Assembly (NCBI GenBank): GCA_016202395.1
Contig: JACQOV010000100.1
Span: forward strand, 1 to 39,188
Source: Deltaproteobacteria bacterium
GTDB taxonomy: Bacteria; JACQOV01
Length of the DNA: 39,188 nucleotides
Direction: 5' to 3'
The notes beneath the pieces are model-generated. The model made no database searches. It saw nothing but the letters and a program-made list of their open reading frames with translations, and was not told where the DNA came from. Every line of letters starts with the position of its first letter. The stretch's first letter is position 1. Of the stretch, positions 8,549 through 39,188 are shown in pieces. Both the position numbers and the translations under genes were made by a program.

Positions 8549-9008
8549 CATGACTCCTCCCAAAGGGGCTGTGAGCAAACCGTTGCGCGTGGGGCGAGGG
8601 CGCGGGTCCGGTCGTGGAAAGACGGCGGGCAGAGGCGTCAAAGGGCAGAGATCGCGGACCGGTCGGATGGCCACCGCCGGTTTCGAAGGGGGACAAATGC
8701 CTTTGCAACGGCGTGTTCCCAAACGCGGGTTTGTGAACCCTTTTCGTGAAGTCTCAACGATAGTGAATGTAGGAGATTTGGAGAAGAGGTTTGATGCGGG
8801 GGCTGTTGTGGATATGAAAACTTTGTGTGAGAAGAGGCTTGTAAAGAGATCCGCCGCGCGCATTAAAATCCTTGCGGGTGGAGCGCTTTCCAAGAAATTG
8901 GTTATAAAGGCTCATGCCTTTAGCGTTGCGGCGAAAAACAAGGTCGAAGCGGTTGGTGGGACCCTTGAGGCTATTTCCGCTGGAGTTATCCCTGGAGCTA
9001 TTCAATGA
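8535..9008 (+). CDS. rplO: 50S ribosomal protein L15
   Basis: [38 protein letters not shown] 8535 after AAGGAGG, overlapping the rpsE 3' end. Confidence 0.96.
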
Positions 9009-20189: not shown

Positions 20190-22434
20190 GGCTTTTTTGA
20201 GTTTAATCTCTCTTCTCATCCTCTCTTGGGCGTCGGCCGCTGATGATGTGCAGGAGCGCGTTCAAAGGACTGCGTTTATCTTGAACGTCACGATTCAGGA
20301 ATATAAAGAAGGAGTAGAGGCCGGAGAGATTGTTAATTCCATAGAATACGAAGAAGCGCTCAGTTTCTTCAACGAAGCCGGAAAGCAGTTTGAAAGTTTA
20401 AAAAATACCGTCTCGTTAGATCCCGCGGTTCAGTCCGATCTCGATCAACGTTTGCAACTCCTCTCCCAATGGATTCAAGAGCGGGCCGACGAAGGGATGT
20501 TGGCTTCATTTTCAGCTCAGTGGGGGGAAGATCTCGCAAAAGCTTTTAAAGTGGGTCTCAATCTTCTACCGAAAGGAAAACCCTCCATAAGTTCTGGAGC
20601 CAAGCTTTATCAGGAAAAGTGTTCTCTCTGTCATGGCTCCATGGGGGGAGGAGATGGCCCCGCTGCGGCAGGTTTGGAGCCGAAGCCGGCCCACTTTAAT
20701 GATCCCGAGCGGATGGGGAATCGCTCGCCTCAAGATCTTTTTCAGATTATTACTGTCGGAATTAAAGGGACATCGATGGTGGCTTGGGAGAATCAACTCA
20801 GTGAGGTCGAGCGATGGGATCTTGCCTCCATTTTGCACCTCTTTTTGGGTTCTCCCGATATATTGGCAAGAGGGGAGAAGGTTCACCCATCATTGAAGGA
20901 TCAACTCCCTTCTTCTTTTCAAGATTGGCAACAACTTTTGCAATGGAGCGACGATGAGTTTGTTATTCAATTCAATGAGCAGATACCAAATCATTCTTAC
21001 ACGACCGAGGATCTTCGCGCGCTCGCTTTGTATCTCCGCTCTCAGACCCTCTCCGGAGAGGGATTTCTAAAAGAATCTTCAGGAGTGGATGGAGTGGAAT
21101 CAACCCTCACTACAGTTCGTCAAACGTTGGGAGCGGCCCTCGATCGGTATCGCCAGCGGGATATCGACGAGGCCAAATCCTTAGCCTTGGATGCTTATCT
21201 CCATTTCGAAGCGGTCGAATCAAAACTCCGCGTGAAAGATCCAGAGTTGGCAAGCGAGCTCGAAATGAAATTTTCGGAGATCCAAATAGGGATATCCGAT
21301 CGACGGCCCTGGGATGAAATCGATGAAAAGGGGGATGAGATCTTCCATGGGTTGAATGCCACCCAACAGATTTTAAGCGAGAAAAGCTCTCCTTCTATCC
21401 TTTTCGTTCAGTCCCTCTCCATTATTGTTCGCGAGGGATTTGAGGCGATGTTAATTATCGCCGCTTTGATCGCATTCCTCCTTCGATTACAACACAAGGA
21501 TAAACTCCGTTTTGTTTATTGGGGAACCGGCATTGGAGTTCTGGCTTCCTTCTTAACGGCATGGTTATTACAAGGACTTTTTACGATCTCTCCGGCGAAT
21601 CAAGAGGTTTTAGAAGGGATGACGATGCTGGTTGCTGTTGCAGTCCTCTTCTATGTTTCCCACTGGATCTTGGCAAAAGCGGAGGTCGAAAAATGGCAGG
21701 AATTTATCCAGAAGCGGACTCAAAGCGCTTTAAAGACAGGGAGTGGAATCGCTTTGGGCTTTGTTGCTTTTTTAGCGGTGTATCGCGAGGGATTTGAAAC
21801 CGTCCTTTTCTACAATGCCCTTTTTGGCTTTGCTGAGAATGGAACATTCCCCGTGGTCTCTGGTTTTGGGGTAGGGCTTCTAGTCCTCCTGGCCCTCTTT
21901 CTTCTTTTTTATCGCTTTCAGGTGAAGATCCCTCTGCGCGAATTTTTCCTCGTTACCAGTTTCATCCTTTACTTCTTAGCTTTTGTTTTCATGGGGCGTG
22001 GACTCCATGAACTTCAAGAGGCCGGTTGGCTGGCAGCACGAGGAATTCCTGGGGTCCCTGCAATTCCATTCTTGGGACTCTATCCCACCTTTGAAACGGT
22101 TTTGGGCCAATCGCTTTTGTTGTTCGCTTTGTTACTGGGGGTCCTCTATGTTTTTGTGATTCAACCCGGGGGCGAAAGGAAAAAACTTTTACAACAGACG
22201 CGCCATATCGAAAAGGATATGATGACACTCCATGCGATGCAAGAAGAGATCTCGCGTCGAGTCGAACAATATCAGAAGATAGCGGCAGTTCCCCCTGACA
22301 TTCTAAAAGAGCTTCAAGACCTCGACACCAAAATCCATGAGCTGATGGATCATGCAAGCCATCTCGAGTCCGAACTCCTCGATTATTTTGAAGAGCTTGG
22401 CGCCAAAACCTGGGGCGCCATCCATAGAAAATAA
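20179..22434 (+). CDS. Cytochrome c / FTR1-family iron permease fusion
   Basis: CSLCH heme motif followed by GTSM; two RExxE motifs (VREGFE, YREGFE); GLHELQEAG; multiple TMs. Confidence 0.9.
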   Translation: MGTKAFLSLISLLILSWASAADDVQERVQRTAFILNVTIQEYKEGVEAGEIVNSIEYEEALSFFNEAGKQFESLKNTVSLDPAVQSDLDQRLQLLSQWIQERADEGMLASFSAQWGEDLAKAFKVGLNLLPKGKPSISSGAKLYQEKCSLCHGSMGGGDGPAAAGLEPKPAHFNDPERMGNRSPQDLFQIITVGIKGTSMVAWENQLSEVERWDLASILHLFLGSPDILARGEKVHPSLKDQLPSSFQDWQQLLQWSDDEFVIQFNEQIPNHSYTTEDLRALALYLRSQTLSGEGFLKESSGVDGVESTLTTVRQTLGAALDRYRQRDIDEAKSLALDAYLHFEAVESKLRVKDPELASELEMKFSEIQIGISDRRPWDEIDEKGDEIFHGLNATQQILSEKSSPSILFVQSLSIIVREGFEAMLIIAALIAFLLRLQHKDKLRFVYWGTGIGVLASFLTAWLLQGLFTISPANQEVLEGMTMLVAVAVLFYVSHWILAKAEVEKWQEFIQKRTQSALKTGSGIALGFVAFLAVYREGFETVLFYNALFGFAENGTFPVVSGFGVGLLVLLALFLLFYRFQVKIPLREFFLVTSFILYFLAFVFMGRGLHELQEAGWLAARGIPGVPAIPFLGLYPTFETVLGQSLLLFALLLGVLYVFVIQPGGERKKLLQQTRHIEKDMMTLHAMQEEISRRVEQYQKIAAVPPDILKELQDLDTKIHELMDHASHLESELLDYFEELGAKTWGAIHRK

Positions 22435-22908
22435 TTACGGCTTCTTCGCTAAATAAACCACGTCGTGGTCTCGGGCGTGGTCCACGACCCTGATTCCAAA
22501 GCCATCCCCTGGCTTGGCCGTTTGAACTTTCTGATGTTCAATCTCCATGGACTCCACCATCTGGTAAAAATCGGAGGTGTGCCCTTTTATGTGAATCCGA
22601 TCCCCCACGGAGAGAGAGCCCTTATCGAGTTCCACCACCGCAACCTGAAGATGACTGTAATAGTGGATTACTTTTCCTACCGGGATCTCCCCTTTAGGAA
22701 CAGGGGGAACTGCCGGTGGAGGAGAGGGTTTGGTTTTCTTGAGTTTAGGAGCCGGAGCCTTTTTTACTTTTTTGGCTTTTGGGGCGGCCTTTTGGGTGAC
22801 CTTCTTTGTGATCTTCTTTTTGGCTTTGGCCGCTTTTTTCTTTGGAGCGGCTCGTTTCTTTAAGGTTTTTAGGGTCTTTTTGGCCTTCTTCTTTGCGCGT
22901 TTTTTCAT
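22435..22908 (-). CDS. Lys/Ala-rich histone-H1-like N-terminus fused to an EF-Tu domain II-like beta-barrel ('translation elongation factor-like' protein)
   Basis: ATG 22908 after AGGAG; ~60 aa of K/A/P low complexity, then VGKVIHYYSHLQVAVVEL...VGDRIHIKG...VESMEIEH...GIRV. Confidence 0.75.
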   Translation of the reverse strand: MKKRAKKKAKKTLKTLKKRAAPKKKAAKAKKKITKKVTQKAAPKAKKVKKAPAPKLKKTKPSPPPAVPPVPKGEIPVGKVIHYYSHLQVAVVELDKGSLSVGDRIHIKGHTSDFYQMVESMEIEHQKVQTAKPGDGFGIRVVDHARDHDVVYLAKKP

Positions 22909-23036
22909 GGAAGCACTCCTTGTTTTGGCGTTTCGGCGTAACATATCAAAACCAAAGACGATTGTAAATTAGTGTTGCGCTAGATTTTGGGGTTTATTTC
23001 GTGGTATGAGGATGGAACACGAAAAGGAGGGGTTTT

Positions 23037-23738
23037 ATGCCCGATTCTTGGCCAGATTCTTGCATGGTTCAGGTTGATTCAGTTCGGAAGAGTTATCGGA
23101 TGGGAGAGGTGGATACGCCTGTTTTGGAAGATGTTTCTCTCCAAATTCGTCAGGGGGAGTGGGTGGTTATCCTGGGGGTTTCAGGTTCGGGAAAGACCAC
23201 TTTGCTCAATCTAATTGGGGCCTTAGATCGCCCCGATTCGGGCAAGGTTACCGTGGATGGGGAGGAGATTAGCCACCTCAATCGTTGGGAGAGGACCGAT
23301 TTCCGCCGTCGAAAAGTTGGTTTTATCTTTCAGTTCTATAATCTGATCCCAACGCTCACGGCTCAAGAAAACGTGGAGACGGTGTTGGAGCTCATCGGAA
23401 TTCGGGGAGAAGCCCTGCACGCGCGCGCGAGAGGCTATCTGGAGGCGGTGGGGTTAAAAGGGAAGGAAGAAAAATTCCCCTCTCAGCTCTCCGGTGGAGA
23501 ACAGCAAAGGGTGGCCATTGCCCGAGCTTTAGCCAAAGAGCCGAGTCTGGTGTTGGCCGATGAGCCGACAGGGAACCTCGATGAGCGGACCAGTAATCAG
23601 GTGATCGAGCTGATGTCGGAGCTTAAAAAACGGACTGGAACTACCTTTGTGATCGTGACTCACAACCGCAAGCTTGGAGAGATTGCCGACCGAGTGGTGG
23701 AGTTGCATCTAGGGCGCGTTGTGGAGGCCAAAGCTTGA
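23037..23738 (+). CDS. ABC transporter ATP-binding protein (LolD/MacB type)
   Basis: [46 protein letters not shown]. Confidence 0.93.
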
Positions 23739-26098
23739 ATAAACTTTGGCTCAAGTCGATTCGAGATCTTCGGCAGATGTGGGGACGCGCTCTTCTGATT
23801 GCCCTCGTCGTGGGGATTGGGCTCTCTGTTTTTATTGGAATCAAAGCCTCCGTTTATAGTTTCGTTCGAACTCGCGACACCCTTTTCAACGAGCTGGCTC
23901 TGGCCGACCTTGAGATTATTGCGCAACCCCTGGCGCTCGAAGAGATCCCGGATTGGTCTCACATTCCCGGTGTGATCTCGTGGGACAAACGGTTGGTCAG
24001 CATGGGTCATATCCCGTTGCGTTCTGGGAAGACTCTGGCTACCGCCGTCTACTATCTTGATTCTGAACCCACGTTAGATCGTTTTCGAATCCTGGAGGGA
24101 AATTCTTTCCAAAAAGGGGATCTTTCACAGGGGGTGATGGAACAGGGATTGCAGAGGTATCATGGCTTTCAGGTCGGAGACTCCTTAGAGCTTGAATCGA
24201 AAGGGGGGACTCAGACCCTTAAAATTGTGGGATCCGTTTTGGCTCCAGAGTTTTTGATGGGAACGATGGATCCAAATCTTTTCGTTCCCCTCAAGGGGAG
24301 TTTGGGGGTGGTCTATCTTCCGATCGATCATGTGATCGATCTCTTCGGTTATCCTTTGTACAACAGCTTCCTTTTCCGGATCGATCCCAAAGCCGATTTT
24401 GAGAAGGTGAAGCGAGAGATTCTAAAAACCTTAGAGGGAACCCCTATCCGTCGTGTTTTGCCTAAGGCGCAGCAGCCCAGCTATCAACACCTTCAAGACG
24501 ACGTTCGAGCCATCGGTTCCTATGCCGATGCGATGGTTCTCATCTTTTCATTGGTCGCTTTTTTGGCGACCTTCCTTTCGGTGAATCGTCTGATCCAATC
24601 GCAGCGGGTGGAGATCGGCGCTTTGAGAGCTTTAGGATTCTCCACCTTTTCCATCGCTCTTTCTTACGTTTTTCTGAGCCTCGTTTTGGCGTTAGGTGGG
24701 GCTATTTTAGGAGTGCCTGCTTCCTATTGGATCCGACATCTCTTTACGCAAGTCTATCTGGAGTCGCATGGCCTTGCGATCCTCTATGGCTGGACGCCAT
24801 TGGGGACGATTCTGAAAGGAATGGTATTGGGGTGGGTTGTCACTCTTTTAGGTGTGTTGGTTCCTCTCATCGGTTTACTTCTCAAAGAGCCTCAGGAAAT
24901 TTTAAGACCCCGATCGGTTCGTGGCAAAGGGCGCTGGATTCGTGGATGGAGGCGGTTGGAGCAGGGACTCCCTCCGATCCCCGCTGGGGTCCGATTGGGA
25001 GTGCGAAACCTTTGGCGTCATCCGGGGTTGGTTGCCACCACATTGGTGTCGATCTCCTTTTCGATCGCCGCTGGTATCGGTTTTTCTATCGGGAATAACT
25101 CTCTCTATCGGACTTCCGATAAAATCTTGGCTGCGCAGAAGTGGACCCTGTTTCTCGACTTTAATGAACTCCTAGAGCCGGAAGGGTACAAACCTCTGTT
25201 GGAGTTGGAGGTGGTAGAGCAGTTTGAGCCTTATCTCCGAGGATACGTGGAGGTTTTTCATGACAGCCATTCCGTAGGACAGATGGCCGCAGGGCAGAGA
25301 GTGATGGGGATTCCTTCGGGAGATTCGATGAATCATCTCGATCTGATTCAAGGGCGGACCTTTGAGGCCGATCGCTTCGAGGTGGTGATCAATCGGTCGC
25401 TTGCGGATCGTTTAGGGGTTTGGATCGGAGATAGTGTGATTCTTGAAGGATCCCAGGGGAGGGACGATTTCATGGTGGTTGGAGTGGTTAGCAACTTTAC
25501 GTTACACACCGTATTTGCGCCATTGCCGAAGGTTCAGTCCATTTTAGGCCTCGAGGACTTCGCTTCAGGGGCTATGGTTCAAGCGGATCGTTCAGATGCG
25601 GTTGAAAGAATTTATCAGATGCCGATGGTGGGAGGGATTTTAACGAAACAGGAGTTTGAGAAAGCGACAGAGGAGATGCGCCAAGAGTTTGGCCGAATGG
25701 TGCGGCTTGCGCGATCCGTCAGCGTCGTCATCGCGCTCCTTTTTATTTTTTCGACGTTGATGTTGGGGGCTTTTGAGCGCGAGGAGGAGTACGCAACCCT
25801 TCAGGCCCTCGGTTTTGGCAGGACCGACTTTCGAAGGATGCTCTCGATAGAGTTGGTGGTGCAAGCGATCATAGGTTTAACGTTGAGTATCCCATTGGCT
25901 CTGACGATTGGAGACTTTTTGGTCTTCCAGCTGAACAAAGCCTGGGGGGTGAACCTCCATCCCTATCCGCGTGTGACCGATTTCTTCTCCGTTTTCGTTC
26001 CTGCGATTTTGGTCCTTCCCTTCACGATGATCCCCATCTTGATCTTTGTGTATCGCATCGATCTGGTCCAAGCCGTCCGCCGCCGAATTTTGGGCTAA
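23735..26098 (+). CDS. ABC transporter permease (MacB/FtsX type, duplicated halves)
   Basis: Two repeats of TM + periplasmic domain + 3 [15 protein letters not shown] and [14 protein letters not shown]. Confidence 0.88.
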
Positions 26099-26118
26099 GA
26101 GGGATCGACATCCTAAAT

Positions 26119-26148
26119 TTGACACGGAGGGGGCTGTGGGGGTATAAC
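26119..26148 (+). promoter_or_regulatory. Putative sigma70 promoter of the USP gene
   Basis: TTGACA-N18-TATAAC, followed by GGAGG and ATG 26168. Confidence 0.5.
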
Positions 26149-26167
26149 TCCCCTCACTGGAGGCTCT

Positions 26168-26614
26168 ATGGGCACAATGCTTCGAGTCAAAAAGATCTTG
26201 GTTCCTACCGATTTTTCTTCACATTCCGCTTTTGCTTTAGATATCGCGCAGCAGATCGCGAAGCGTTTTCACGCGAAGCTCTCTCTTTTGCATGTTTTAA
26301 TAGAACCTGCGTTCGGAATCTATGTCCCTCAAACCATCTCGGAGGGGGAACTCCGAGAAGCGGGTTTCCAAGAGGCGAAACGCCAGATGGCCCGGTTCTT
26401 AAAAAAAAGCGGAAGCAAAATTTCTCCGCGCAGTGTTGTTTATCGCTGGGGGTTATCCAGCGTTCAAATCTTGAAATTTGCTAAAGAGGAGAAAATGGAT
26501 CTCATCGTGATGGGTTCACTGGGTTGCACCAACATTTTGGATTACCTGATTGGCTCTACTGCGGAGCATGTGGTGCGTCACTCGAAGGTCCCGGTCCTCG
26601 TCGTCCGCGGTTAA
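26168..26614 (+). CDS. Universal stress protein (UspA family)
   Basis: KKILVPTDFS, DLIVMGSLG, GSTAEHVVRHSKVPVLVVR. Confidence 0.93.
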   Translation: MGTMLRVKKILVPTDFSSHSAFALDIAQQIAKRFHAKLSLLHVLIEPAFGIYVPQTISEGELREAGFQEAKRQMARFLKKSGSKISPRSVVYRWGLSSVQILKFAKEEKMDLIVMGSLGCTNILDYLIGSTAEHVVRHSKVPVLVVRG

Positions 26615-26671
26615 ACACCCCATTGCAAACAGGTTGGTGTTGGTGGTACAATCTCATCACTTCCAAACTTT

Positions 26672-27313
26672 ATGCAAAGGCTTGTTCGGGGGATTCAAGG
26701 ATTCTCCCTCATCCTTTTTATCTGGATCTCTACGGAGGTGATCCCGTTCCCTCCGGATTTAAGGGCACTCCCTTCTTTTTTCACACTTCGAGCCTTGCTA
26801 GGAATCCATCCTGTTTTGGGAGAGATCCCGACATGGGTATGGATCTTTATCGCCTTTTTTTCTTTGGGAGCCGCTCTTTGGCCAGCAAGGAATCAACCCA
26901 TTCAACGGTGGACGACCGGATTGATTGTGTGCGGTTTGCTGGGAATCCCCCTGTATGTTTTGTTCAAAGGGGAGAGTTGGGGGAGCTATCTGTGGTCGTT
27001 TCACCTTTTGACATTCATGGGGGCGAATCTGTGGATTCGAGATCCGGACTATCTTTATGCCGCGTTGTTGGGAGGGGCGTGTTTTGATTTGATTGCAGCC
27101 TCGCGGGCTTTAGCTCAGGGGCTTGCAACGATCCCCCAGTTTTACGCAAGAGCGGTTTCACCCACAACAATTACGGTTGTGGATTCCGCTTTTGCTGTGG
27201 CTGTTTTTATTCTTTGGATCGCCCCTATTCGAAGAGAAACTCCGAAGGCGGCAGGAAATCTGGGAGATTCTAGCCGAGTGGTGTGGCGAAACGAGGCCCC
27301 TCCTTCTTCTTAA
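26672..27313 (+). CDS. Hypothetical multi-pass membrane protein
   Basis: 213-aa ORF with ~6 hydrophobic segments; upstream TTGCAA-N18-TACAAT (26623-26652). Confidence 0.55.
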   Translation: MQRLVRGIQGFSLILFIWISTEVIPFPPDLRALPSFFTLRALLGIHPVLGEIPTWVWIFIAFFSLGAALWPARNQPIQRWTTGLIVCGLLGIPLYVLFKGESWGSYLWSFHLLTFMGANLWIRDPDYLYAALLGGACFDLIAASRALAQGLATIPQFYARAVSPTTITVVDSAFAVAVFILWIAPIRRETPKAAGNLGDSSRVVWRNEAPPSS

Positions 27314-27316
27314 CCC

Positions 27317-28081
27317 CTATCCTGCCATTGTTAGTCCGCCGCTCACACTCAACACCTGCCCCGTAATAAAACTAGCCTCATCGGAAGCAAGGAAAGCCAC
27401 TGCGGAAGCGATATCTTGCGGTGTCCCTGTTCGCCCTAGAGGAATCGATTTTTCAATGGCGGCCATCACCTTGGCTCCTCTCTCGCTCTTCTTCATCTCC
27501 CCCAGAAGCGCTGTTTCTGTGGGCCCTGGGCAGATCACGTTAACGGTGACGTGATATCGCGCGACTTCCCGCGCCAAGGCTTTCGAGAAAGCGATAACCC
27601 CTCCTTTCGTGGCGGAGTAAACCACCTCCCCCATGCTCCCCACGCGTCCGGCGTCGGAGGCGATATTGATGATTCGACCGCCATTGTTCGGAATCATGGC
27701 TGTCTTGAGAATAGTATGAGCGCAGTAGATCGGCCCTTTCAGATTGATTCCCAGGAGTCGATCCCAAGTGTCGGGTGAGTTATCGACAAAAAACTCGAAG
27801 CGGTCCCAGCCGGCGTTGTTTACCAAGATGTCGATTTGACCGAAGGCCTCTAAAGCTCTTGCAGCAAGGGTCTGGCATTGCGAGTCGTCGCTCACATCGG
27901 TTTTGCAAACAATCGCGCGCCGGCCGATCTTTCCAATCTCTAAGGCGGTCTGTTCCGCGATAGACTCATTGCAATCGGCAATAACCACCTCCGCCCCTCG
28001 CTCCGCCAGTTTAAGGGCAATCCCTTTGCCGATTCCTTGAGCTCCTCCTGTTACTACGGCGACTTTCCCATCTAATTTCAT
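27317..28081 (-). CDS. Short-chain dehydrogenase/reductase (BadH/FabG-like acyl-CoA alcohol dehydrogenase)
   Basis: TGGAQGIG, NNAGWD, ASDAGRVGS, YSATK, CPGPTET; ATG 28081 after GGAGG. Confidence 0.88.
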   Translation of the reverse strand: MKLDGKVAVVTGGAQGIGKGIALKLAERGAEVVIADCNESIAEQTALEIGKIGRRAIVCKTDVSDDSQCQTLAARALEAFGQIDILVNNAGWDRFEFFVDNSPDTWDRLLGINLKGPIYCAHTILKTAMIPNNGGRIINIASDAGRVGSMGEVVYSATKGGVIAFSKALAREVARYHVTVNVICPGPTETALLGEMKKSERGAKVMAAIEKSIPLGRTGTPQDIASAVAFLASDEASFITGQVLSVSGGLTMAG

Positions 28082-28083
28082 CG

Positions 28084-28989
28084 TTACATCCTCCATCGGT
28101 CATGAACCCAAAACCACATCTCCGGATATTTTCGAATCGTGGCGTCGAGTGCCTCGTTGCATTTCTGGGTCAGAGCGTACACATCCTTCTCTCGATCTCC
28201 GGTGGGGGTGTATTGGATGGGGGCCTCGTAAATGGCTCGCCACCGCGTATTCCCAAGGGGTTGTGGATAGAAGTGCATGATAGAAGATCCCGTATCCAGA
28301 GCTAATTCTGCGAGATGCCGATTGGTCAGAGCCGGCTGGCCCAGAAAAGGGACTATAATCCCTCCTCGCAGGGGCTGGCTTCTCTGATCGAGAAGAATCG
28401 CGATCATTTCGTTGTGGAGTAAAATCTCCTTCAATCGTGGAAGAGCCCCTTTTGCGTAAACCACTCCGACGCTTCCCGAACATCGGAGTCCATCGATCAA
28501 TCGATCCAATAGAGGATTCTTGAGAGAACGAGCCACATAATGGATTGGAAGCCCTTGATACCCCGCGCCGACTGCGAGGAGCTCCGCGTTTCCGATATGT
28601 CCTAGCAAAATAATCACACCGCCTTTTTTTCGAGCCTCGCTGATCCGACGCCATGATTCGGGATCTCGTTCAATAAATCGTTCATAGTTTTGAGCGTTGA
28701 TGTGACGGGCCCAAAGGATCTCAAAAAGAGAGTTGGAAAAGTTTTGAAAAGAGGCTTTGGCGATGGCCCGTTTCTCTTTCTCGGTTTTGGTAGCTCCGTA
28801 AACGTGGTCGAGATTTTTTAAGGCGAGCTTCCTGCGCGAGAAAATCAGCCAATAGCAAAGCGTTCCGATCCCTTTGGCAAGGGCCGACCACACGGAGCGG
28901 GGAAGAAGATGGATGAAACGATGCAAGAGATAGATGGGGAGATAAACCGCCCAATGGCGCCAACGAATGGTTTCTGTTTTGGAATTCAT
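28084..28989 (-). CDS. LpxL/HtrB-family (lipid A/lysophospholipid) acyltransferase
   Basis: HIGNAE (HxxxxE), LLDQ, VPFLGQPA, PEMWFWVHDRW. Confidence 0.85.
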   Translation of the reverse strand: MNSKTETIRWRHWAVYLPIYLLHRFIHLLPRSVWSALAKGIGTLCYWLIFSRRKLALKNLDHVYGATKTEKEKRAIAKASFQNFSNSLFEILWARHINAQNYERFIERDPESWRRISEARKKGGVIILLGHIGNAELLAVGAGYQGLPIHYVARSLKNPLLDRLIDGLRCSGSVGVVYAKGALPRLKEILLHNEMIAILLDQRSQPLRGGIIVPFLGQPALTNRHLAELALDTGSSIMHFYPQPLGNTRWRAIYEAPIQYTPTGDREKDVYALTQKCNEALDATIRKYPEMWFWVHDRWRM

Positions 28990-28997
28990 GGAGGGGG

Positions 28998-29006
28998 ATT
29001 ATAGCA
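28998..29006 (-). promoter_or_regulatory. Extended -10 promoter element, giving a near-leaderless acyltransferase mRNA
   Basis: Minus strand TGcTATAAT, then 8 nt, then ATG 28989; no Shine-Dalgarno. Confidence 0.55.
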
Positions 29007-29013
29007 CGATAAA

Positions 29014-29191
29014 GGGCGCCTCTAAAAACTATGTTCGTAACGAAAAATCACAATCTAGGCCGAGCCAAGGAAGATGAGCAAAAAGCCCGCAAACGTACCT
29101 GGAAGGTACGTTGAGGACTTTTTGTAAAATCTGACGCAGGCGCAGGCCAGAGTGTGATTTTTCGTTACGAACATAGTTTTTAGAGGCGCCC
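29014..29191. mobile_element. Non-autonomous MITE-like element, 178 bp
   Basis: Perfect 39-bp TIRs (GGGCGCCTCTAAAAACTATGTTCGTAACGAAAAATCACA, 29014-29052 / 29153-29191); flanking TAAA direct repeats (29010-13, 29192-95); apical AACGTACC-tggaa-GGTACGTT. Confidence 0.85.
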
Positions 29192-29192
29192 T

Positions 29193-29262
29193 AAAGAAAA
29201 GGGTCGAAGGCCTTGCTAGGGCTGAGGTGGGGTTTATGGTAGGGAGAGGCCCCCGACCCAAC
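29193..29262 (-). ncRNA. Candidate sigma54-dependent small RNA (~70 nt; single stem with C-rich loop and U tail)
   Basis: Starts at the predicted +1 of a -24/-12 promoter; 13-bp stem GGGUCGGGGGCCU/AGGCCUUCGACCC, 33-nt C-rich loop, then UUUUCUUU. Confidence 0.55.
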
Positions 29263-29272
29263 TGATTTACAA

Positions 29273-29288
29273 TGCAATTGTCATGCCA
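29273..29288 (-). promoter_or_regulatory. Sigma54 (-24/-12) promoter
   Basis: Minus strand TGGCAT-GACAA-TTGCA, GG-N10-GC spacing. Confidence 0.7.
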
Positions 29289-29304
29289 ACTCAGGGCATG
29301 TTTA

Positions 29305-29388
29305 TAACTCATTGAAATTAATACAGAATAAAAAAGTCCCCGGTGTGACGTTATTGTAAATTGTGCGTGGTTGTGACTTTTTGATACA
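29305..29388 (-). promoter_or_regulatory. IHF-like site and tandem enhancer-like sites upstream of the sigma54 promoter
   Basis: Minus strand TTTCAATGAGTTA (29317-29305) is one mismatch from WATCAANNNNTTR; TGTGAC-initiated TGT-N11-AAA (29344-60) and TGT-N11-ACA (29372-88). Confidence 0.5.
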
Positions 29389-29391
29389 GAA

Positions 29392-30711
29392 TCATCCGAG
29401 CCAGACGGAGCGGCGCCGCTTCAGTTGATCATAGACCATCTGTTGGATATTGGCCCGGATCATCTCCGAGAACTGATTAATAAGGATATCATCCTCAATG
29501 GCCTCGGGCCCATAGGCAGAGAAGTCAAACGGTTTTCCCATGTGGATGTACCACTTGGTGGGGTAAGGGATGAGTCCTAGAAGCCCCAACCAAGGGAAGG
29601 TGGGGGTAATCGGGATGTAAGGGAGCTTGAACCAACGGCCTAACCAATCGGCCCGGGCCATTAAAGGCATGGCCTCTTCGGCTCCAATCACCGCTACGGG
29701 AACAATGATGGAACCGGTTCGGAGGGCCAATTTGATGAATCCACCGCGGCCAAAGCGTTGCAATTGATATCGCTCGGAGTAGAGTTTCCCAACCCCTTTG
29801 ACCCCTTCGGGGAAAACAGCGACAAGCTGATCCTTCCTCAGCAAGCATTCCGCGTTTTCTTGGCAGGCGCGAGCTCCTCCGACTCGGCTCATAAACGAGC
29901 CGCCAAAAGGAAAATAATAAACGAAATTCTCGACCAGGAACCGGACCTCCCGATGCTCGGGATGCTCGTTCATCACGGCCACCTTGATCATGGTTCCATC
30001 ATACGGGAGCGCTCCCGAGTGATTCCCAACCAGGAGGGCTCTCCCCTCATTGGGGACGTTCGTGACGCCTGAGGTTTCCACACGCCACCACGTTTTGTAG
30101 AGAAAGTCAAAAACAGGCTTCATCCGCGCTTGAAAGATTGGATCCAAACCGAATTCATCCACTTGTTCGGATCGGCTTCTCATCCAGAATTGTCGAAAAA
30201 TAGATCGCAGCGGCTCCAAGGAGATTCCTTCGCTGAGTTTCTGATAAGCGGTGAACAAAATCTGGATGATTTGTTCTCGATAGTGGTTCTCTTTTTCGGG
30301 AGTGGGCTCCTTTTCTTGCTGGTACTGTTGGGCGACCTCTTTGAGCCTCTCCTCATAATTATGAGCCAATTTTGAGAATCGTTTCTCGAATTCTGGAAGT
30401 GGAGGAGCTGTGGGAGGGTGCGCTGGAGGCTGGATCTTGTTTTCGATCTGGCGGAGGCCTTGTTGCAATCGCATCTCCAGGGTCGCAAATCGGTGTTCGA
30501 TCGCTTGATCGATCAAAGTTTGAGTGTCGGGCGGTGTGGAAGCAGACGATGGCGAGGCCGGAGATTTAGCCCCATTTCCCTCCGCTTTTACGGTGGGAAT
30601 CTCTTCCGGTTTTTGGAGAGCGCCCGCCTCTTTTGGGGTGGCAAGGAGCAGACTCGGTTTAGCCCCTTGCATGAAAGGATCGTTTCCTAAAACATTCTTT
30701 GGACCTGCCAT
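29392..30711 (-). CDS. PlsC-family (lysophospholipid) acyltransferase with N-terminal Pro-rich/coiled-coil extension
   Basis: GNHSGALPYDG, VFPEG, FGRGGF, VDEFGLDP; ATG 30711 after GGGGGAG. Confidence 0.88.
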   Translation of the reverse strand: MAGPKNVLGNDPFMQGAKPSLLLATPKEAGALQKPEEIPTVKAEGNGAKSPASPSSASTPPDTQTLIDQAIEHRFATLEMRLQQGLRQIENKIQPPAHPPTAPPLPEFEKRFSKLAHNYEERLKEVAQQYQQEKEPTPEKENHYREQIIQILFTAYQKLSEGISLEPLRSIFRQFWMRSRSEQVDEFGLDPIFQARMKPVFDFLYKTWWRVETSGVTNVPNEGRALLVGNHSGALPYDGTMIKVAVMNEHPEHREVRFLVENFVYYFPFGGSFMSRVGGARACQENAECLLRKDQLVAVFPEGVKGVGKLYSERYQLQRFGRGGFIKLALRTGSIIVPVAVIGAEEAMPLMARADWLGRWFKLPYIPITPTFPWLGLLGLIPYPTKWYIHMGKPFDFSAYGPEAIEDDILINQFSEMIRANIQQMVYDQLKRRRSVWLG

Positions 30712-30774
30712 AACTCCCCCATATCGCAAATTTAAAACATACCTCAGTTTCTTTAAAAAAACTAGGCCTTCAGC

Positions 30775-31773
30775 CTACTCCACCAGATGGATTTGACGCA
30801 GGCGTTGAATCCCGAGATAACTTTCCAGAGCCTCTTTGGTGCTGTATTTTGCTTCGAACCCAAGCTCTTCCTTGGCCTTTGTTCCATCAGCCACCCAAAC
30901 ATAGCGGATATAGTCGAGATGGGGCGCTGGAGCTCGAGTCACTTGGGCCAACCATAAGGCATCGACCATCGGATAAGCGATGCCGTGAAAGATCGGCAGA
31001 ATCGGTTTGCCAGCCAGCCGCAGCAGAGTAAAGAAGGGCAAGACCCCACGTCCCACAATATTGTATTCTCCGGAATAATCCCCTTCGATGACAAGATCCC
31101 ATGCATTGAGGAGATCTTCTTCGTGGACGGCTTGGAACAAAGGATCATAGCCTAACAGTGTGATGCAGACGGGGCGGCTCAGATAATCGGTTACAAAATT
31201 TTTGATCGTGGGTCCCAGAATAGTGCAAGGGCGAAGGACGGTAACGATGGTCTCAGGCCTTTTCTTCCGATAGCGACGGATCTCTTTTTCCACCTCCACC
31301 TTGTCGGCGACAAAGCGATAGCGGGGATTGATGTTGAGAGGATGATTCTCGGTCAAGAAGTTCGGATTTGTAGGATTGGCGCCATAGACCATCGTGGTGC
31401 TCGCCACGAGGATTTTATGAATCTTTACTTTCGCGCAAGCGTGCAATACGTTGATCGATCCGATCACCTCTACCTCATGCGGGTGGCTGCGGCTATGACT
31501 GGGGCTATTAAAAAAAGCCGCATGAATGAAGGTGTCACAACTCTCCCGTTCTAAGATTTCAGCAATGGTCGCGTCAATGGTCGGGATGGTGAGGTCAATC
31601 TGATAAAATTTCGTCGGAGGCTCCAAGAACGAAGGTTGGTGCCTATCGAGCGCAATCACCTGATAATCGGAGCGACTTTGAAGTCGTTTCAAGAGATTGC
31701 TCCCGATAAAACCATTCACTCCTGTGATCGCAATAACCCGCTTGTGTTTGAGTCGTGAACGCCGATGTGTCAT
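30775..31773 (-). CDS. NAD-dependent epimerase/dehydratase (extended SDR)
   Basis: ITGVNGFIG, STTMVYGA, LRPCTILGP, VHEEDL. Confidence 0.85.
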   Translation of the reverse strand: MTHRRSRLKHKRVIAITGVNGFIGSNLLKRLQSRSDYQVIALDRHQPSFLEPPTKFYQIDLTIPTIDATIAEILERESCDTFIHAAFFNSPSHSRSHPHEVEVIGSINVLHACAKVKIHKILVASTTMVYGANPTNPNFLTENHPLNINPRYRFVADKVEVEKEIRRYRKKRPETIVTVLRPCTILGPTIKNFVTDYLSRPVCITLLGYDPLFQAVHEEDLLNAWDLVIEGDYSGEYNIVGRGVLPFFTLLRLAGKPILPIFHGIAYPMVDALWLAQVTRAPAPHLDYIRYVWVADGTKAKEELGFEAKYSTKEALESYLGIQRLRQIHLVE

Positions 31774-31923
31774 CTTCTATCTGGTCCCTGCTAAACAAAT
31801 TCTTGTTGTGATGCAGTTCATGGGTAGCCTCTCTCCTAGTAAAAGTCAAGAAGAGCTTGACATGCGTGGTTTTTTGTATAATAAATAGCACGTTTGATCC
31901 TACCTAAAAAAACGAGGTGAACC

Positions 31924-32367
31924 ATGGGACTGGAAACTGTTCAGAAGAGTGTCACGATCAACGCCTCTCCTCAACAATGTTATGATGCACTGTGCCAATT
32001 TGAATCCTATCCCCAGTGGCAATCGGCTGTGCAATCCATTCGGGTCGTGGCGAAGTATCCGGATGGACGCGCTAAAGATGTGGAGGTGGTGGTTCATGCG
32101 GTGGTAAAGAAGATCCGGTATGTTTTGCGTTATCAATATGATGATGTGCGTCATAAGTTGAGTTGGACCTATGTGGATGGAGATGTCCGAAATGCGGAAG
32201 GTTGGTATCAGTTTAAGGAAGTGGGAGGAGATAAAACGGAGGCGACCTGTCAAATGGGGGTAGACCCTGGCTTTTGGGTTCCCAAGACGATTCGGAATAC
32301 GTTGACAGAGGTGACATTGACGAAATCGATGGAAGAGCTCAAGACCTATGCTGAGAAAAAAGGTTAG
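31924..32367 (+). CDS. SRPBCC/START-like (polyketide cyclase family) ligand-binding protein
   Basis: SVTINASPQQCYDALCQFESYPQW, LSWTYVDGD, EGWYQF, C-terminal helix; GAGG RBS. Confidence 0.8.
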   Translation: MGLETVQKSVTINASPQQCYDALCQFESYPQWQSAVQSIRVVAKYPDGRAKDVEVVVHAVVKKIRYVLRYQYDDVRHKLSWTYVDGDVRNAEGWYQFKEVGGDKTEATCQMGVDPGFWVPKTIRNTLTEVTLTKSMEELKTYAEKKG

Positions 32368-32668
32368 AGGGTACGTGGTCCTTTCAACCATTGGCTCACA
32401 TCGAAAGGCGCGCGTGTTGGCCTCGGCGTTGGTGAAAGAGCGACTTGCGGCTTGTGTTAACATCGTTTCGGGGGTGCGCTCGGTTTATATTTGGAAAAAT
32501 CGGTTCTGTGAGGATCGGGAGTTCTTGTTAGTGATTAAAACCTCTAAAGCTCGGTTAAATCGCTTGATAGCCCGCATCGAGGAGATTCATCCTTACGAAC
32601 TTCCGGAGGTGATCGCTTTGCCCATTGACGTGGGGGCGCGAAAGTACCTTCGATGGATCGAAGGTTAG
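32348..32668 (+). CDS. cutA: Divalent-cation tolerance protein CutA
   Basis: LVKERLAACVNI, SVYIW, HPYELPEVIA, YLRWI. Confidence 0.92.
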   Translation: MLRKKVRGYVVLSTIGSHRKARVLASALVKERLAACVNIVSGVRSVYIWKNRFCEDREFLLVIKTSKARLNRLIARIEEIHPYELPEVIALPIDVGARKYLRWIEG

Positions 32669-32910
32669 AAGGAAGGCTTCATCTGTGGAGTTTTGTTTAC
32701 AGTGGGTCGGTAAAAAAGATCAACACCTATTTCTTTTTAGAAAACAGGAAGTTAGCGTTTTATGGAGGGGTAAAGCGTAAAAAAAGTTTGCACTTTTTTT
32801 CGGGTGGATTTTTTTTGATTCCGTCTTTGTAAGAGGGAAGGATGGTCTATCTTTTTGAAAATAGAGTGTTTTTAGCTCAGTGTTTTGAATTATTTAAAAA
32901 GAAGCTTTTC

Positions 32911-32926
32911 TGGCACTGTTTTTGCA
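32911..32926 (+). promoter_or_regulatory. Sigma54 (-24/-12) promoter of the TatT-DctP operon
   Basis: TGGCAC-TGTTT-TTGCA consensus in a ~300-bp AT-rich intergenic region; AAGGAGG precedes ATG 32977. Confidence 0.75.
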
Positions 32927-32976
32927 TGTCCTAAGATGCCGAAGGGCATTATTTACCTATAAAGGAGGGTACAACA

Positions 32977-33843
32977 ATGAAGTGGGTCGTATTAACAGTA
33001 TCGCTAAGTGGCTTGCTGCTGTTTAACGCCAGTTGTTCTATCAAAGCGGCAGCAGTTAATGCGCTGGTCCCCAGCATGTACGACATGATAGAGACCTCTT
33101 ATCAAGGAAAAGATTCTGCAACCGTTGGAGAGGCCCTTCCCACCTTTATTGTTCTGATGGAGGGGATGGTGGGGATGTCTCCAAAAAATCAGGAGTTGCT
33201 GGCTTTGGCAGGACAGCTCAACGCCTTCTATGCGATGGGATTTATGGAACAACAGGATCCCAAGAGGGCGATACGGCTTTATGAAAGGGGTGTGGAACTG
33301 GGGATGGAGGCGTTGAAGCGAAACAAAAAATTCCGCAACTCTTTGGCAAGAGGGGATAAGTTTCGTGAAGCGACTCCGTACTTAAAGAAAGACGATCTGC
33401 TCCCCGCGTTTTGGACCCTCATGGCATGGGCCCTTCTTTTACAACTCAAGTTGGACGATCCCAAAGCCCTTTTCGATCTTCCTAAAGTTACCGCACTTCT
33501 GAATCGGGTTATGGAATTGGATGACACCTATTTCTTCGGAGCGCCTCATCTTTTGCAAGGGGCTCTCTACACGATTCTGCCCGCGATGGCAGGAGGGGGA
33601 CCGGATAAGGCCCAGGCAGAGTTTGGCAAGCTTTTTGCGATCTCGGGAGATCGGTTCATGCTGGGGCATGTCTACTATGCTCAGAACTACGCCACTCTTA
33701 TCAAAGATAAGGCCCTTTTCGAGAGTGAGCTCCAGCTCGTTTTGGACACCCCCTCGGAGGTGCTCACAGAAATGCCGATTGCGAACGAGATGGCCAAGGA
33801 TCTGGCTCGAAAGCTTTTAGCGAAAAAGGATGAGCTTTTTTAG
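32977..33843 (+). CDS. TRAP transporter T-component (TatT) lipoprotein
   Basis: Lipoprotein-type signal ending LFNASC; helical repeats; ELDDTYFFGAPH, PAMAGGGPDKA, ANEMAKDLARKLL; followed by DctP genes. Confidence 0.85.
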   Translation: MKWVVLTVSLSGLLLFNASCSIKAAAVNALVPSMYDMIETSYQGKDSATVGEALPTFIVLMEGMVGMSPKNQELLALAGQLNAFYAMGFMEQQDPKRAIRLYERGVELGMEALKRNKKFRNSLARGDKFREATPYLKKDDLLPAFWTLMAWALLLQLKLDDPKALFDLPKVTALLNRVMELDDTYFFGAPHLLQGALYTILPAMAGGGPDKAQAEFGKLFAISGDRFMLGHVYYAQNYATLIKDKALFESELQLVLDTPSEVLTEMPIANEMAKDLARKLLAKKDELF

Positions 33844-34891
33844 TTTACATAAGAAGTGGGGGAGGTCGTTGGGGTTGGCTCTTGTTGTCAGCGCTTCTGT
33901 GTCGTCAGCGCAGACATCCGCGCCGAAGTATATCCTTAAACTGGGGGCGGTGACCCCTCCGGGGACCTCCCAGGCTCGAGTAGAGCAGAGAATAGCCGAT
34001 CGGATTGATGAAGCAACCCAAGGGGAGGTGAAGGCGGTTTGGTATTTCGGGGCGATTTTGGGGGATGATATTGAGATGGTTCGAAAGGCGAGGTTGGGGC
34101 AACTCGATGGAGGGGGTTGGGTGGAATCGGGATTGTCTGAGATCGCTAGGGAGGTGATGTTGTTGGGAACCCCCTTTTTCTTTAACTTTACACTGAATGA
34201 TTATTCGGAGGCGCTTTGCACCCTGGATGGATCTCTTCCCTCGTATCAGAGGCTTTTTGAACGGAAGGGATTTGTTCTGGTGGATTGGTTTCCATTGGGG
34301 GGGCTCTTTTTCATGTCCAAACAACCGTTTCAGAGCCTTAAAGACGTTGAGAATTTAAAATTTTGGAGTTGGAGCGGTTACCCCATGTTTCAACCGATTT
34401 TCGATGCGCTGGGGGTGAAAAATCAGGTGAGTTTATCGCTCACCGAGGTTTTACCCGCTTTGCAAACGGGGATGATCGATGCCACCGTGGCCATACCGTT
34501 TGGTTTTGTGAGTCTCCAATGGTACACCGAGCAGAGGTATATCTTGGACTTTCCCATTTCGTTCCTGAATGCGGCCGTGGTGTTGAAAAAATCTTCCCTT
34601 GAAAAGATTCCGCCTCCCTTGCAAGAGAAAGTGCTTCAAGCCATCCGTGAGACAAGGAAAGAATGGCTTGAAGTGGATATGGAAGGAAACGGGAAGATAT
34701 TCCAAGCCCTGTTGGACTATGGGATCCAACCGATCCGAAACCCCGAGCTAATGGAGCAGGTTAAAAAGAGGACGGAGGGGGTTGCGAAGGGCATGACAGG
34801 AAAATATTGGTCTCAGGAATTTTACGACCAGATGGTGGGCCTTCGTGATCAATGTCGCGCGTTACGATCGGGTCCAGAAGCGGTGGAGTAA
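33830..34891 (+). CDS. dctP: TRAP substrate-binding protein DctP/TatP, paralogue 1
   Basis: LKLGAVTPPGT, LGDDIEMVRKARLGQLDG, EVLPALQTGMIDA, LQWYT. Confidence 0.85.
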   Translation: MSFFSLHKKWGRSLGLALVVSASVSSAQTSAPKYILKLGAVTPPGTSQARVEQRIADRIDEATQGEVKAVWYFGAILGDDIEMVRKARLGQLDGGGWVESGLSEIAREVMLLGTPFFFNFTLNDYSEALCTLDGSLPSYQRLFERKGFVLVDWFPLGGLFFMSKQPFQSLKDVENLKFWSWSGYPMFQPIFDALGVKNQVSLSLTEVLPALQTGMIDATVAIPFGFVSLQWYTEQRYILDFPISFLNAAVVLKKSSLEKIPPPLQEKVLQAIRETRKEWLEVDMEGNGKIFQALLDYGIQPIRNPELMEQVKKRTEGVAKGMTGKYWSQEFYDQMVGLRDQCRALRSGPEAVE

Positions 34892-34918
34892 ACAGGATTC
34901 GTCGGGAGGAGGTTCCTG

Positions 34919-35935
34919 TTGAGAATCGGTGTGGTTGGGGCAACGTTTTTATTTTTTGCGATTGCTTCGCAGGCCGTTGCGGATCCAGCCTATGTCATCA
35001 AATTGGGGACCTCTACCCCCGTGGGTACCGAGCAAGCTCGGATCGAGGAAGAGATGGCCCGGGCGATTTATGAAAAGACCTCTGGAAAGGTGAAAGTGGT
35101 GTGGTATATGGGGGCCGTTTTAGGGGACGATGTAGATCAAATACGAAAGACCCATCTGGGGCAGATCGATGGTGGAGGATGGTTAGGGATGGGTTTAACG
35201 CAGATTGTAAAAGAGATAGCTTTATTGGAAAGCCCTTTCTTTTTTAATTTGACACTGGATGATTTCTCTGAGGTGGATTGCACCTTGAAAGGGACGCTCC
35301 CTCTTTATCAAAAGCTTTTTCAGGACAAAGGATTTGTATTGGTCGACTGGTACCAACATGGCCCCGGTTTTTTCCTTTTCAAAAGGCCGGTCGAGAGGCT
35401 GGAAGATTTGCAACAATTTCGAGTTTGGCTGTGGCCGGGGTACCCGGTATTCGAGCAATTCATAAGAGCCGTTGGAATCGGCAATCCGGTTGGAATTCCT
35501 CTTCCTGAGGTTTTAACCTCTCTACAGACGGGGGTCATTGAGACTTCGGCGGGCGCCCCTTTTGCTTTGGTAGCCCTGCAATGGTACACCGAGGCGAATT
35601 ACATTTTTGATACCCCTTTGTTGTTTGTGACGGCGGCTTTAGTAATCAAGAAATCGAAACTCGATGCGATGCCGGAACCGGTGCGGCAACAGGTTTTTGA
35701 TTATCTTCATTCAAGCGCCCCGTCCATGGTGGCCTCTATGAGGAGGGCCGACAAAGTATCCTACGAACAATTGATCCAACACGGCTTGAGGCGTTTCTCG
35801 GATCCTAAGATTCTGGAGGAGGTGAAGAGAAAAAGCCAAAAAGTTTATGAGAACATGATCGGAAAAGATTATTCCCGAGAATTTTACGAGCAAGTGGTCT
35901 CGATCCGAGACCAGTGCCGCGCCACCGTTCATTAA
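34919..35935 (+). CDS. dctP: TRAP substrate-binding protein DctP/TatP, paralogue 2
   Basis: TTG start after GGAGGAGG; LGDDVDQIRKTHLGQIDG, EVLTSLQTGVIE, LQWYT. Confidence 0.85.
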   Translation: MRIGVVGATFLFFAIASQAVADPAYVIKLGTSTPVGTEQARIEEEMARAIYEKTSGKVKVVWYMGAVLGDDVDQIRKTHLGQIDGGGWLGMGLTQIVKEIALLESPFFFNLTLDDFSEVDCTLKGTLPLYQKLFQDKGFVLVDWYQHGPGFFLFKRPVERLEDLQQFRVWLWPGYPVFEQFIRAVGIGNPVGIPLPEVLTSLQTGVIETSAGAPFALVALQWYTEANYIFDTPLLFVTAALVIKKSKLDAMPEPVRQQVFDYLHSSAPSMVASMRRADKVSYEQLIQHGLRRFSDPKILEEVKRKSQKVYENMIGKDYSREFYEQVVSIRDQCRATVH

Positions 35936-35939
35936 AGAT

Positions 35940-37073
35940 ATGAAGATACTTCGAGAAATTTTTGGGCGAGGAATGTTTAGGCGAGGAATTTTTAGGAGAG
36001 AGGTGTTGACCTTAGGGATGGTCTTTGTTTTCCTCGGATCGGCCTTTGCGTTTGCGGAAGAGGGGAGGACTCTTTTAAAGATGGGGATGATTTTGCCTCA
36101 GGGGACCCCTGCGGCCAATCTCATCCTGGAGTTGAAACAGGAGATCTTAAAGAAAACCCAAGGAAAGATTAAGACAGAGTGGTACATGGGGGCGGTGCTT
36201 GGCGATGAAACCGACATGAGACGAAAAGCGATCTTAGATCAGATTCAGGGAGGGGCTTGGACGGTGGGAGGTCTTTCTCCCATTGTTTCGGAGACTCAGT
36301 TGCTCGAAGGCCCGTTCTTTTTTAATTTTACGTTGAGCGATTATCGTGAAGTCGATTGCACTCTTCAGAAATCTTATCCCATCTGGCAAAAGATGTTTAA
36401 AGAGAAGGGGTTTGTTCTGGTGGACTGGTACCAACAAGGCCCCATTTATTTTATTCATAAATCTCCCGCCAATACGATGGAGGATGCCGAGAAATTTAAG
36501 GCTTGGTCTTATCCGGGATATCCGATGTCGGAAGAGATTATGAAAGCGTGGGGAGTCCAAAATCGCATCTCGCTCGGATTGCCTGAGGTTCTTACAGGGT
36601 TACAAACAGGCATCATTGAAACGGCTTATGCCTCTCCCGCCTCTTTGGTTGGATTACAATGGTACACCGAGGTCAATTATATCTTAGGCATTCCGGTGAC
36701 CTTTAGCCCCGTTGGAGTATTGGTGACCCAGAAGGCTTTTGACCGCTTATCCCCTTCCGATCAAAAGATCTTTCTAGAGACCTTTCGATCTAAAACTTCG
36801 CAGGTCACGCAGTCGCTTCGGGAAGCAGATCGATTGGCTTATAAGGGTTTGGTCGAAGGGGAGGGGGCGCCATTAAAGGTATCGGGCAATCCGGAGATCT
36901 TCGCGGAATTGAAAAAAAGGGCGGGAAAGGTTTATGAAAACCTGACAGGAAAGGTTTGGTCTCAGAATTTCTATCAACAAATCGTGTCTATTCGGAATCA
37001 ATGTCGTGCATCGTTAAATGAACCCCTCACCCTTAAACCCTCTCCCCGCTCCGCGGGGAGAGGGAAGGGGTGA
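35940..37073 (+). CDS. dctP: TRAP substrate-binding protein DctP/TatP, paralogue 3
   Basis: LGDETDMRRKAILDQIQG, EVLTGLQTGIIE, LQWYT; C-terminus runs through a REP-like hairpin; start may be downstream. Confidence 0.83.
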   Translation: MKILREIFGRGMFRRGIFRREVLTLGMVFVFLGSAFAFAEEGRTLLKMGMILPQGTPAANLILELKQEILKKTQGKIKTEWYMGAVLGDETDMRRKAILDQIQGGAWTVGGLSPIVSETQLLEGPFFFNFTLSDYREVDCTLQKSYPIWQKMFKEKGFVLVDWYQQGPIYFIHKSPANTMEDAEKFKAWSYPGYPMSEEIMKAWGVQNRISLGLPEVLTGLQTGIIETAYASPASLVGLQWYTEVNYILGIPVTFSPVGVLVTQKAFDRLSPSDQKIFLETFRSKTSQVTQSLREADRLAYKGLVEGEGAPLKVSGNPEIFAELKKRAGKVYENLTGKVWSQNFYQQIVSIRNQCRASLNEPLTLKPSPRSAGRGKG

Positions 37074-37077
37074 GGGG
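37023..37077. repeat. REP-like palindrome (CCCCTCACCC...CCCTCTCCCC...GGGGAGAGGG type)
   Basis: CCCCTCACCC/GGGTGAGGGG outer stem; CCCTCTCCCCGC-tcc-GCGGGGAGAGGG inner stem. Confidence 0.8.
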
Positions 37078-37099
37078 CGCTGTGGAAGGAGGTTGGATT

Positions 37100-39149: not shown

Positions 39150-39188
39150 ATCAAGGCTCAACAAATGATTATAAAAATAATCAACAAA

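Follow-up and report, generated by a model that had tools for sequence, protein, structure and literature searches.

A candidate sigma-54-dependent small RNA gene with a C-rich hairpin loop in an uncultured groundwater bacterium

Results

The minus strand directly downstream of a PlsC-type acyltransferase gene was found to carry, in this order, a putative activator site, an IHF-like site, a sigma-54 promoter, and a hairpin with a long, C-rich loop and a T tract. The explanation considered best, to which a probability of roughly 0.5 is assigned, is that this stretch is an activator-dependent sigma-54 small RNA gene, whose product would be a single hairpin of ∼70 nt that originates from the 3′ end of an epimerase/acyltransferase operon and acts through its exposed loop. 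Evident from the sequence are the architecture of the promoter and the hairpin, the absence of an ORF behind them, and the fact that the next gene has a promoter of its own.

Setting of the candidate gene

The window, which is the whole stretch of DNA analysed (39,188 nucleotides), is one contig (C77) of an assembly of 1.9 Mb in 108 contigs (89% complete, 49% G+C). The source genome is the sole member of its phylum among the species-representative genomes compared; the closest relatives known as proteins (P0001 and P0002) were 95% and 68% identical in the alignment. Of the sequencing runs listed, the stretch is contained in just four, all of them DNA runs from groundwater metagenomes of one study, and in no RNA run. 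Contigs from these runs match the window exactly over 29153-29514 and then break at a repeat element (see below); because they are identical to the window, they yielded no sequence variation. The surrounding genes are:

31773-30775, minus strand: NAD-dependent epimerase
29392-30729, minus strand: PlsC-type acyltransferase, 445 aa, the last gene of the conserved epimerase/acyltransferase pair
28084-28989, minus strand: lipid A late acyltransferase-like gene (LpxL-like; Lip_A_acyltrans), downstream
27317-28096, minus strand: SDR gene, overlapping the LpxL-like gene

The acyltransferase and LpxL-like genes are separated by 402 bp. When 29 distant loci encoding the acyltransferase were compared, an epimerase homologue was found nearby in 17 of them, but an LpxL-like or SDR gene followed the acyltransferase in none, which places an operon boundary behind the acyltransferase gene. 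No syntenic loci were recovered when genome and metagenome contigs were searched by protein.

A sigma-54 promoter with upstream modules

The elements of the candidate promoter region are, from upstream to downstream:

29371-29389, minus strand: imperfect palindrome CTGTATC-AAAAA-GTCACA (TGT-N11-ACA), a putative upstream activator site ∼100 nt before the −24 element, supported by pattern enrichment
29344-29349, minus strand: second GTCACA, a lone half-site with no matching left half in the sequence
29321-29329, minus strand: second copy of ATTCTGTAT, which also forms the left half of the upstream site, beside the IHF-like site (direct-repeat family D3)
29305-29317, minus strand: IHF-like site TTTCAATGAGTTA (core TCAATGAGTTA, 29315-29305)
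29288-29273, minus strand: sigma-54 promoter TGGCAT-N5-TTGCA (−24/−12), with GG at −24, GC at −12, and the correct spacing between them
29262, minus strand: predicted transcription start (G), 12 nt past the C of the −12 GC, the usual sigma-54 spacing

The promoter, already proposed when the sequence alone was read, is clearly more than a chance match. Two sites of the type TGGCAY-N5-TTGCW are present in the window, compared with 0.07 expected from 100 shuffles, and 50 strict sites in the genome, compared with 2.2 ± 1.1 in 10 simulated genomes (first-order Markov), an excess of ∼20-fold; a looser pattern yielded 58 sites where 6.0 were expected. By our own count, an ORF start with a Shine-Dalgarno sequence lies no more than 110 nt downstream of 47 of these 58 sigma-54-like sites, and the motif is therefore taken to mark working promoters. 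A TRAP-type transporter operon (TAtT, then DctP, from 32977), whose start has a Shine-Dalgarno sequence, begins 49 nt after the second site in the window (TGGCAC-N5-TTGCA, 32911-32926, plus strand). The genome encodes one RpoN (an open frame of 473 aa; its nearest protein clusters show all three sigma-54 domains), 13 strong Sigma54_activat proteins, all on contigs other than the window, and three members of the HU/IHF family. The start at 29262 is predicted from the spacing to the −12 element.

The order of upstream site, IHF-like site, and −24/−12 promoter, which the sequence-only reading had recognized as the classic sigma-54 layout, agrees with that of other sigma-54 promoters of the same genome. 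The IHF-like site fits the consensus, which we take to be WATCAANNNNTTR, with one mismatch, the distance from the start of its TCAA to the −24 element being 27 nt. Of the 58 sigma-54-like sites, 18 have the motif TCAA-N4-TTA in forward orientation in the preceding 90 nt (0.37 expected), and in each case it is 23-51 nt away from TGGCA; the copy of the candidate is identical to three others in the genome. A putative IHF site between the putative activator site and the promoter, as judged by motif, is thus found where it had been proposed.

Of the two enhancer-like sites that had been claimed, only one is complete. GTCACA occurs twice on the minus strand (29377-29372 and 29349-29344), but it is part of a full TGT-N11-ACA site at the distal position alone, the proximal one being a lone half-site; ATTCTGTAT also occurs twice in this upstream region. 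In the 200-nt regions that precede the 58 sigma-54-like sites, 15 TGT-N11-ACA sites were counted, i.e., 1.38 per kb as opposed to 0.15 per kb genome-wide, a roughly nine-fold enrichment, and TGT-N12-ACA sites are numerous there as well. The more restrictive pattern CTGT.TC-[AT]5-G.[CT]ACA has one other match in the genome, CTGTGTC-AAAAA-GATACAG, positioned 108 nt before a sigma-54 promoter on another contig (C96:2881), and the modules of both promoter regions can be aligned one to one. As the pattern was defined after the site had been seen, this twin is a lead to a shared activator rather than proof of one. The C96:2881 promoter precedes a gene for a 1304-aa TIG-domain protein. A functional theme common to both loci was considered and rejected: the C96 operon encodes the TIG-domain protein, an SDR, and an RHS-core protein, and the two SDRs are just 34% identical.

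Distinct families of activator-site-like sequences are discernible upstream of sigma-54 sites throughout the genome. TGTTAA-N6-TTAACA-like sites are present at many of these promoters, often two or three at each, TTGTAACAGATCTGTTACAA is found upstream of sigma-54 sites on C41, C55, C79, C88, and C106, and GGTGT-N11-ACACC-like sites occur as well. Such families could define the regulons of the 13 activators.

Since one genome was examined and chance alone would account for ∼2 of its 50 strict sigma-54 matches, a fortuitous juxtaposition of motifs, or a decaying promoter remnant that no longer fires, was also considered. That three separate modules fit the genome's own pattern, in the correct order and at the correct spacing, makes this very improbable.

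A 13-bp hairpin with an open, C-rich loop

Downstream of the predicted start lie:

29201-29259, minus strand: hairpin, a 13-bp stem (two G-U pairs) closing the unpaired 33-nt loop CUCCCUACCAUAAACCCCACCUCAGCCCUAGCA (from folding)
29193-29200, minus strand: T tract TTTTCTTT, 7 T in 8, directly after the stem (from the sequence)

The stem is formed by GGGTCGGGGGCCT (29259-29247) and AGGCCTTCGACCC (29213-29201). The loop contains 17 C and 2 G in its 33 nt and is unpaired in the minimum free energy fold and in the centroid fold. At −23.4 kcal/mol (z −2.2) the hairpin is modestly more stable than shuffled sequence, five of 200 shuffles folding equally well; the fold is unchanged within a context of 286 nt. 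Stem, loop, and U tract are as the sequence-only reading had described them, and their combination is unique in the genome: a scan that required a stem of 9 bp or more, 18 or more unpaired loop nucleotides, and a T tail returned four hairpins, the candidate being the sole C-rich one. C-richness as such is common, with 589 equally C-rich, G-poor stretches of 33 nt in the genome.

A G+C-rich stem immediately followed by a U tract constitutes, judged by sequence, a terminator-like signal. Scanning with the consensus terminator, which admits loops of 3-8 nt, did not call the hairpin, whose loop of 33 nt exceeds that range and is atypical of terminators. In the window as a whole, the number of terminator-like sites was not above that in shuffled sequence (20 compared with 23.1, and 33 compared with 29.3). 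From the acyltransferase stop codon (29392) to the hairpin, the scan made a single call, a weak stem of 6 pairs that spans the stop codon; shuffles give 2.1 such calls for this region. Besides the sigma-54 transcript, the hairpin probably also ends that of the epimerase/acyltransferase operon. Termination, like every step of RNA action discussed below, is what we infer from these features.

The lack of any other convincing terminator in this interval, the recurrence of the epimerase/acyltransferase pair with a gene order that ends there, and the failure to find a specific target for the loop (see below) would all fit a hairpin that is a plain terminator of the upstream operon. The sigma-54 promoter would then be real but give rise to a by-product RNA without any action in trans, or would act on the DNA as a bound closed complex. 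A full upstream site together with an IHF site and a −24/−12 element would, however, be costly to keep for a by-product, and the loop is long, open, and without equal in the genome; the plain terminator is therefore judged improbable.

No ORF with a Shine-Dalgarno sequence follows the predicted start, in line with the earlier remark that the promoter has no obvious protein target. A single ORF traverses the stretch (85 aa, 29312-29055); it begins before the promoter, terminates within the repeat element, and matched no Pfam family.

Families and homologues

The notion that the RNA does not belong to a named family was borne out by a search against Rfam 15 (4227 families), which gave no match over 29193-29290 up to an E value of 10; nor did any family reach its gathering score in the window. 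BLAST against its own genome returned the candidate itself alone, and the other hairpins with a T tail found by the structural scan of the genome are unlike it. In 60 other genomes, DNA matches were at chance level (E ≥ 0.019). The promoter-plus-stem pattern matched 30 times in metagenome contigs, none of the matches being homologous (unrelated sigma-54 promoters), and the loop pattern matched once in genome contigs, in a Methylomirabilota MAG, a hit dismissed as chance. Neither covariation nor a homologue of promoter plus stem was thus found in the collections scanned. The sigma-54 motif was likewise absent downstream of the acyltransferase gene in all 29 distant loci, and absent within 500 nt upstream of LpxL-like genes in 29 loci from other phyla. 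This would make the sigma-54 module lineage-specific, a conclusion of little weight because the homologues are distant.

Potential targets of the loop

Pairing of the loop with G-rich Shine-Dalgarno regions of specific genes, as had been suggested for it, gained no support. For 2147 start regions called by crude criteria, the calculated duplex energies (minimum −41.0, mean −15.7) were within the range of those for 20 shuffled loops, and exact or near-exact complements of the loop occur in the genome in chance numbers. The best complement in a start region is that of cinA (C27), with 14 of 15 positions matching over the Shine-Dalgarno sequence and the AUG; matches of this quality are also at chance number. 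A complement on C10 was rejected because it is located inside a 635-aa ORF (LepA-like by eye) and not at a gene start.

In general terms, CCAUAAACCCCACCUC within the loop is the complement of a Shine-Dalgarno sequence, spacer, and AUG, and the loop contains CACCUC, which we take to be the core of the anti-Shine-Dalgarno sequence. The 3′ end of the 16S rRNA was not found in the assembly. Nor were genes for Hfq, CsrA, or ProQ found in this 89%-complete genome, which makes the Hfq-independent mode of the Xanthomonas small RNA sX13 the nearest model.

A repeat element and the promoter of the next gene

The region between the T tract and the LpxL-like gene contains two further features:

29013-29192, no strand assigned: MITE-like inverted-repeat element of 180 bp with 54-nt arms, 91% complementary (from repeat search and folding)
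28998-29026, minus strand: sigma-70 promoter of the LpxL-like gene, with −35 TTTAGA, a 17-nt spacer, and the extended −10 TGCTATAAT (10 of 12 positions plus TG)

The element, which the sequence-only reading had missed, starts directly after the T tract and is inserted before the promoter of the next gene. It is present in the genome in 13 near-full-length and many partial copies, roughly half of which lie at the end of a contig, and has the termini AGGGCRCC...GGYGCCCT. As other copies have unrelated left flanks, the T tract is flanking DNA and lies outside the element. A 2-bp duplication (TT here) was discernible by eye, and thus tentatively, at six of the 11 copies with both flanks visible. 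No transposase with the element's ends was found. As RNA, the element itself would fold into a very stable hairpin, the energy of the 286-nt stretch around it being −138.3 kcal/mol. No contig of the four DNA runs spans an empty site of the element, a family that breaks the assembly at many contig ends. At one locus (G000:C82:8400-10200), two solo termini (∼8787-8819 and 9752-9775) flank ∼960 bp with two ORFs, one of 202 aa that matches no Pfam family and one of 88 aa (DUF4325, STAS-like); this could be a relative of the element that carries cargo.

That the next gene has an extended −10 of its own was confirmed: TGCTATAAT (29006-28998) is near consensus and ends 8 nt before the ATG at 28989, where no Shine-Dalgarno sequence is present. 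The promoter is the best sigma-70 match in 19189-39188, and its −35 is supplied by the element. To judge from this arrangement, the LpxL-like mRNA is probably leaderless, unlike that of most genes here (GGAGG). If the element is disregarded, the 3′ arm of the hairpin would overlap a weaker −35, TCGACC, with a 16-nt spacer (read from the sequence).

Promoter and LpxL-like gene point in the same direction and, with the element taken out, the predicted start would be ∼90 nt from the ATG. It is therefore conceivable that the sigma-54 promoter serves the LpxL-like and SDR genes, that the hairpin and U tract are a leader attenuator or stabilizer, that read-through adds conditional expression to that from sigma-70, and that the element landed later. 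Structured leaders behind sigma-54 promoters do exist in this organism, as the two following loci indicate, and a hairpin in this position need not mean a small RNA. On contig C57, a 16-bp hairpin and UAGUUUUAAG lie behind the sigma-54 promoter at 20830 (minus strand; region C57:18500-21500); ∼25 nt further, an ATG without Shine-Dalgarno sequence opens a gene for a signal-peptide protein, so that this hairpin either is part of a leader or represents a second small RNA. On contig C69, the sigma-54 promoter at 1745 drives a c-di-GMP-I-GGC riboswitch (RF03167; G000:C69:1809-1892; 59.5 bits, gathering score 59) located before a gene, a pairing of enhancer-dependent transcription with a second-messenger riboswitch. 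In addition, three tandem short hairpins on GTCATCCC.../GGGATC-like repeats (REP-like) were noticed by eye between a sigma-54-like site and a gene on contig C106 (2080, minus strand).

Against a leader function at the candidate locus stands, first of all, the gene's near-consensus extended −10, which is placed for a leaderless mRNA without Shine-Dalgarno sequence; translation from an internal AUG of a long transcript would presumably be poor. The T tract is strong (7 T in 8), and the supposed leader would have tolerated a hairpin-forming insertion of 180 bp. The fact that none of the 29 LpxL-like loci elsewhere has an upstream sigma-54 motif points in the same direction, albeit as weak evidence given identities of 27-37%. 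A leader of the LpxL-like gene is thus rather unlikely, and a small remainder is left for readings outside those considered here.

Discussion

If the stretch is indeed a small RNA gene, expression would begin with an enhancer-binding protein that binds CTGTATC-N5-GTCACA, and bending by IHF at TCAATGAGTTA would aid activation of the RNA polymerase-sigma-54 complex at TGGCAT-N5-TTGCA. Transcription would start near 29262 and mostly stop at the 13-bp hairpin and U tract (29259-29193), yielding an RNA of ∼70 nt that is essentially one hairpin with a C-rich, G-poor loop of 33 nt. The RNA would thus sit in the 3′ end of the upstream operon, with a promoter of its own, and its most likely action would be base-pairing of the loop with G-rich ribosome-binding regions.

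A more far-reaching version is tentative and, taken as a whole, rather doubtful. In it, the locus encodes a minimal one-hairpin riboregulator controlled by a sigma-54/activator/IHF switch, the loop is antisense to the whole translation-initiation region and masks ribosome-binding sites or mimics the anti-Shine-Dalgarno sequence without Hfq, CsrA, or ProQ, and the hairpin also terminates the upstream lipid operon.

Should the small RNA gene be real, it would extend riboregulation under sigma-54 control to a deep-branching, uncultured groundwater lineage, and would be an unusually minimal case, with one hairpin and no known RNA chaperone gene found. It would not establish a new principle because sigma-54-dependent small RNAs and small RNAs with C-rich loops are both established. 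A map of the organism's sigma-54 promoters, IHF sites, and activator-site families could assign regulons to the 13 activators.

Well-known small RNAs under sigma-54 control work together with a protein: Qrr, CrcZ/CrcY, and GlmY/GlmZ do so with Hfq, Crc, or RapZ. The candidate resembles them in being a predicted activator- and sigma-54-dependent small RNA, but differs, as far as the accessible parts of the descriptions go, in being a single hairpin of ∼70 nt without a multi-stem body and without CA-rich or GGA motifs. The class to which the sequence-only reading had referred is well established and comprises the LuxO/sigma-54-dependent Qrr RNAs (PMC10162802), CrcZ/CrcY, GlmY/GlmZ, and NcS25, as well as four ncRNAs among the 36 regulons of the sigma-54 regulome of Desulfovibrio vulgaris Hildenborough (PMC4641369). 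According to the accessible part of the latter paper, sigma-54 regulators that drive ncRNAs tend to occur in free-living species. Like the Desulfovibrio ncRNAs as presented there, the candidate has an orphan sigma-54 promoter with a putative activator site that would drive a non-coding RNA; no sequence relation between them was found. Two of the four Desulfovibrio ncRNAs are described in that part as downstream of an activator gene, and the other two are named beside a different gene (PMC4641369); unlike the first two, the candidate has no activator gene in the 39-kb window. With respect to the loop, the closest counterpart is sX13 of Xanthomonas, for which the text available describes CCCC-type motifs in hairpin loops, G-rich motifs at translation starts, and independence of Hfq, and which is placed there beside C-rich-loop small RNAs of staphylococci and Helicobacter (PMC3771888). 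The candidate likewise exposes C-rich motifs in a hairpin loop, but whereas sX13 consists of three stems, each capped by a short loop, and a dependence on sigma-54 is not reported in that text (PMC3771888), the candidate presents its motifs in one loop of 33 nt behind a sigma-54 promoter.
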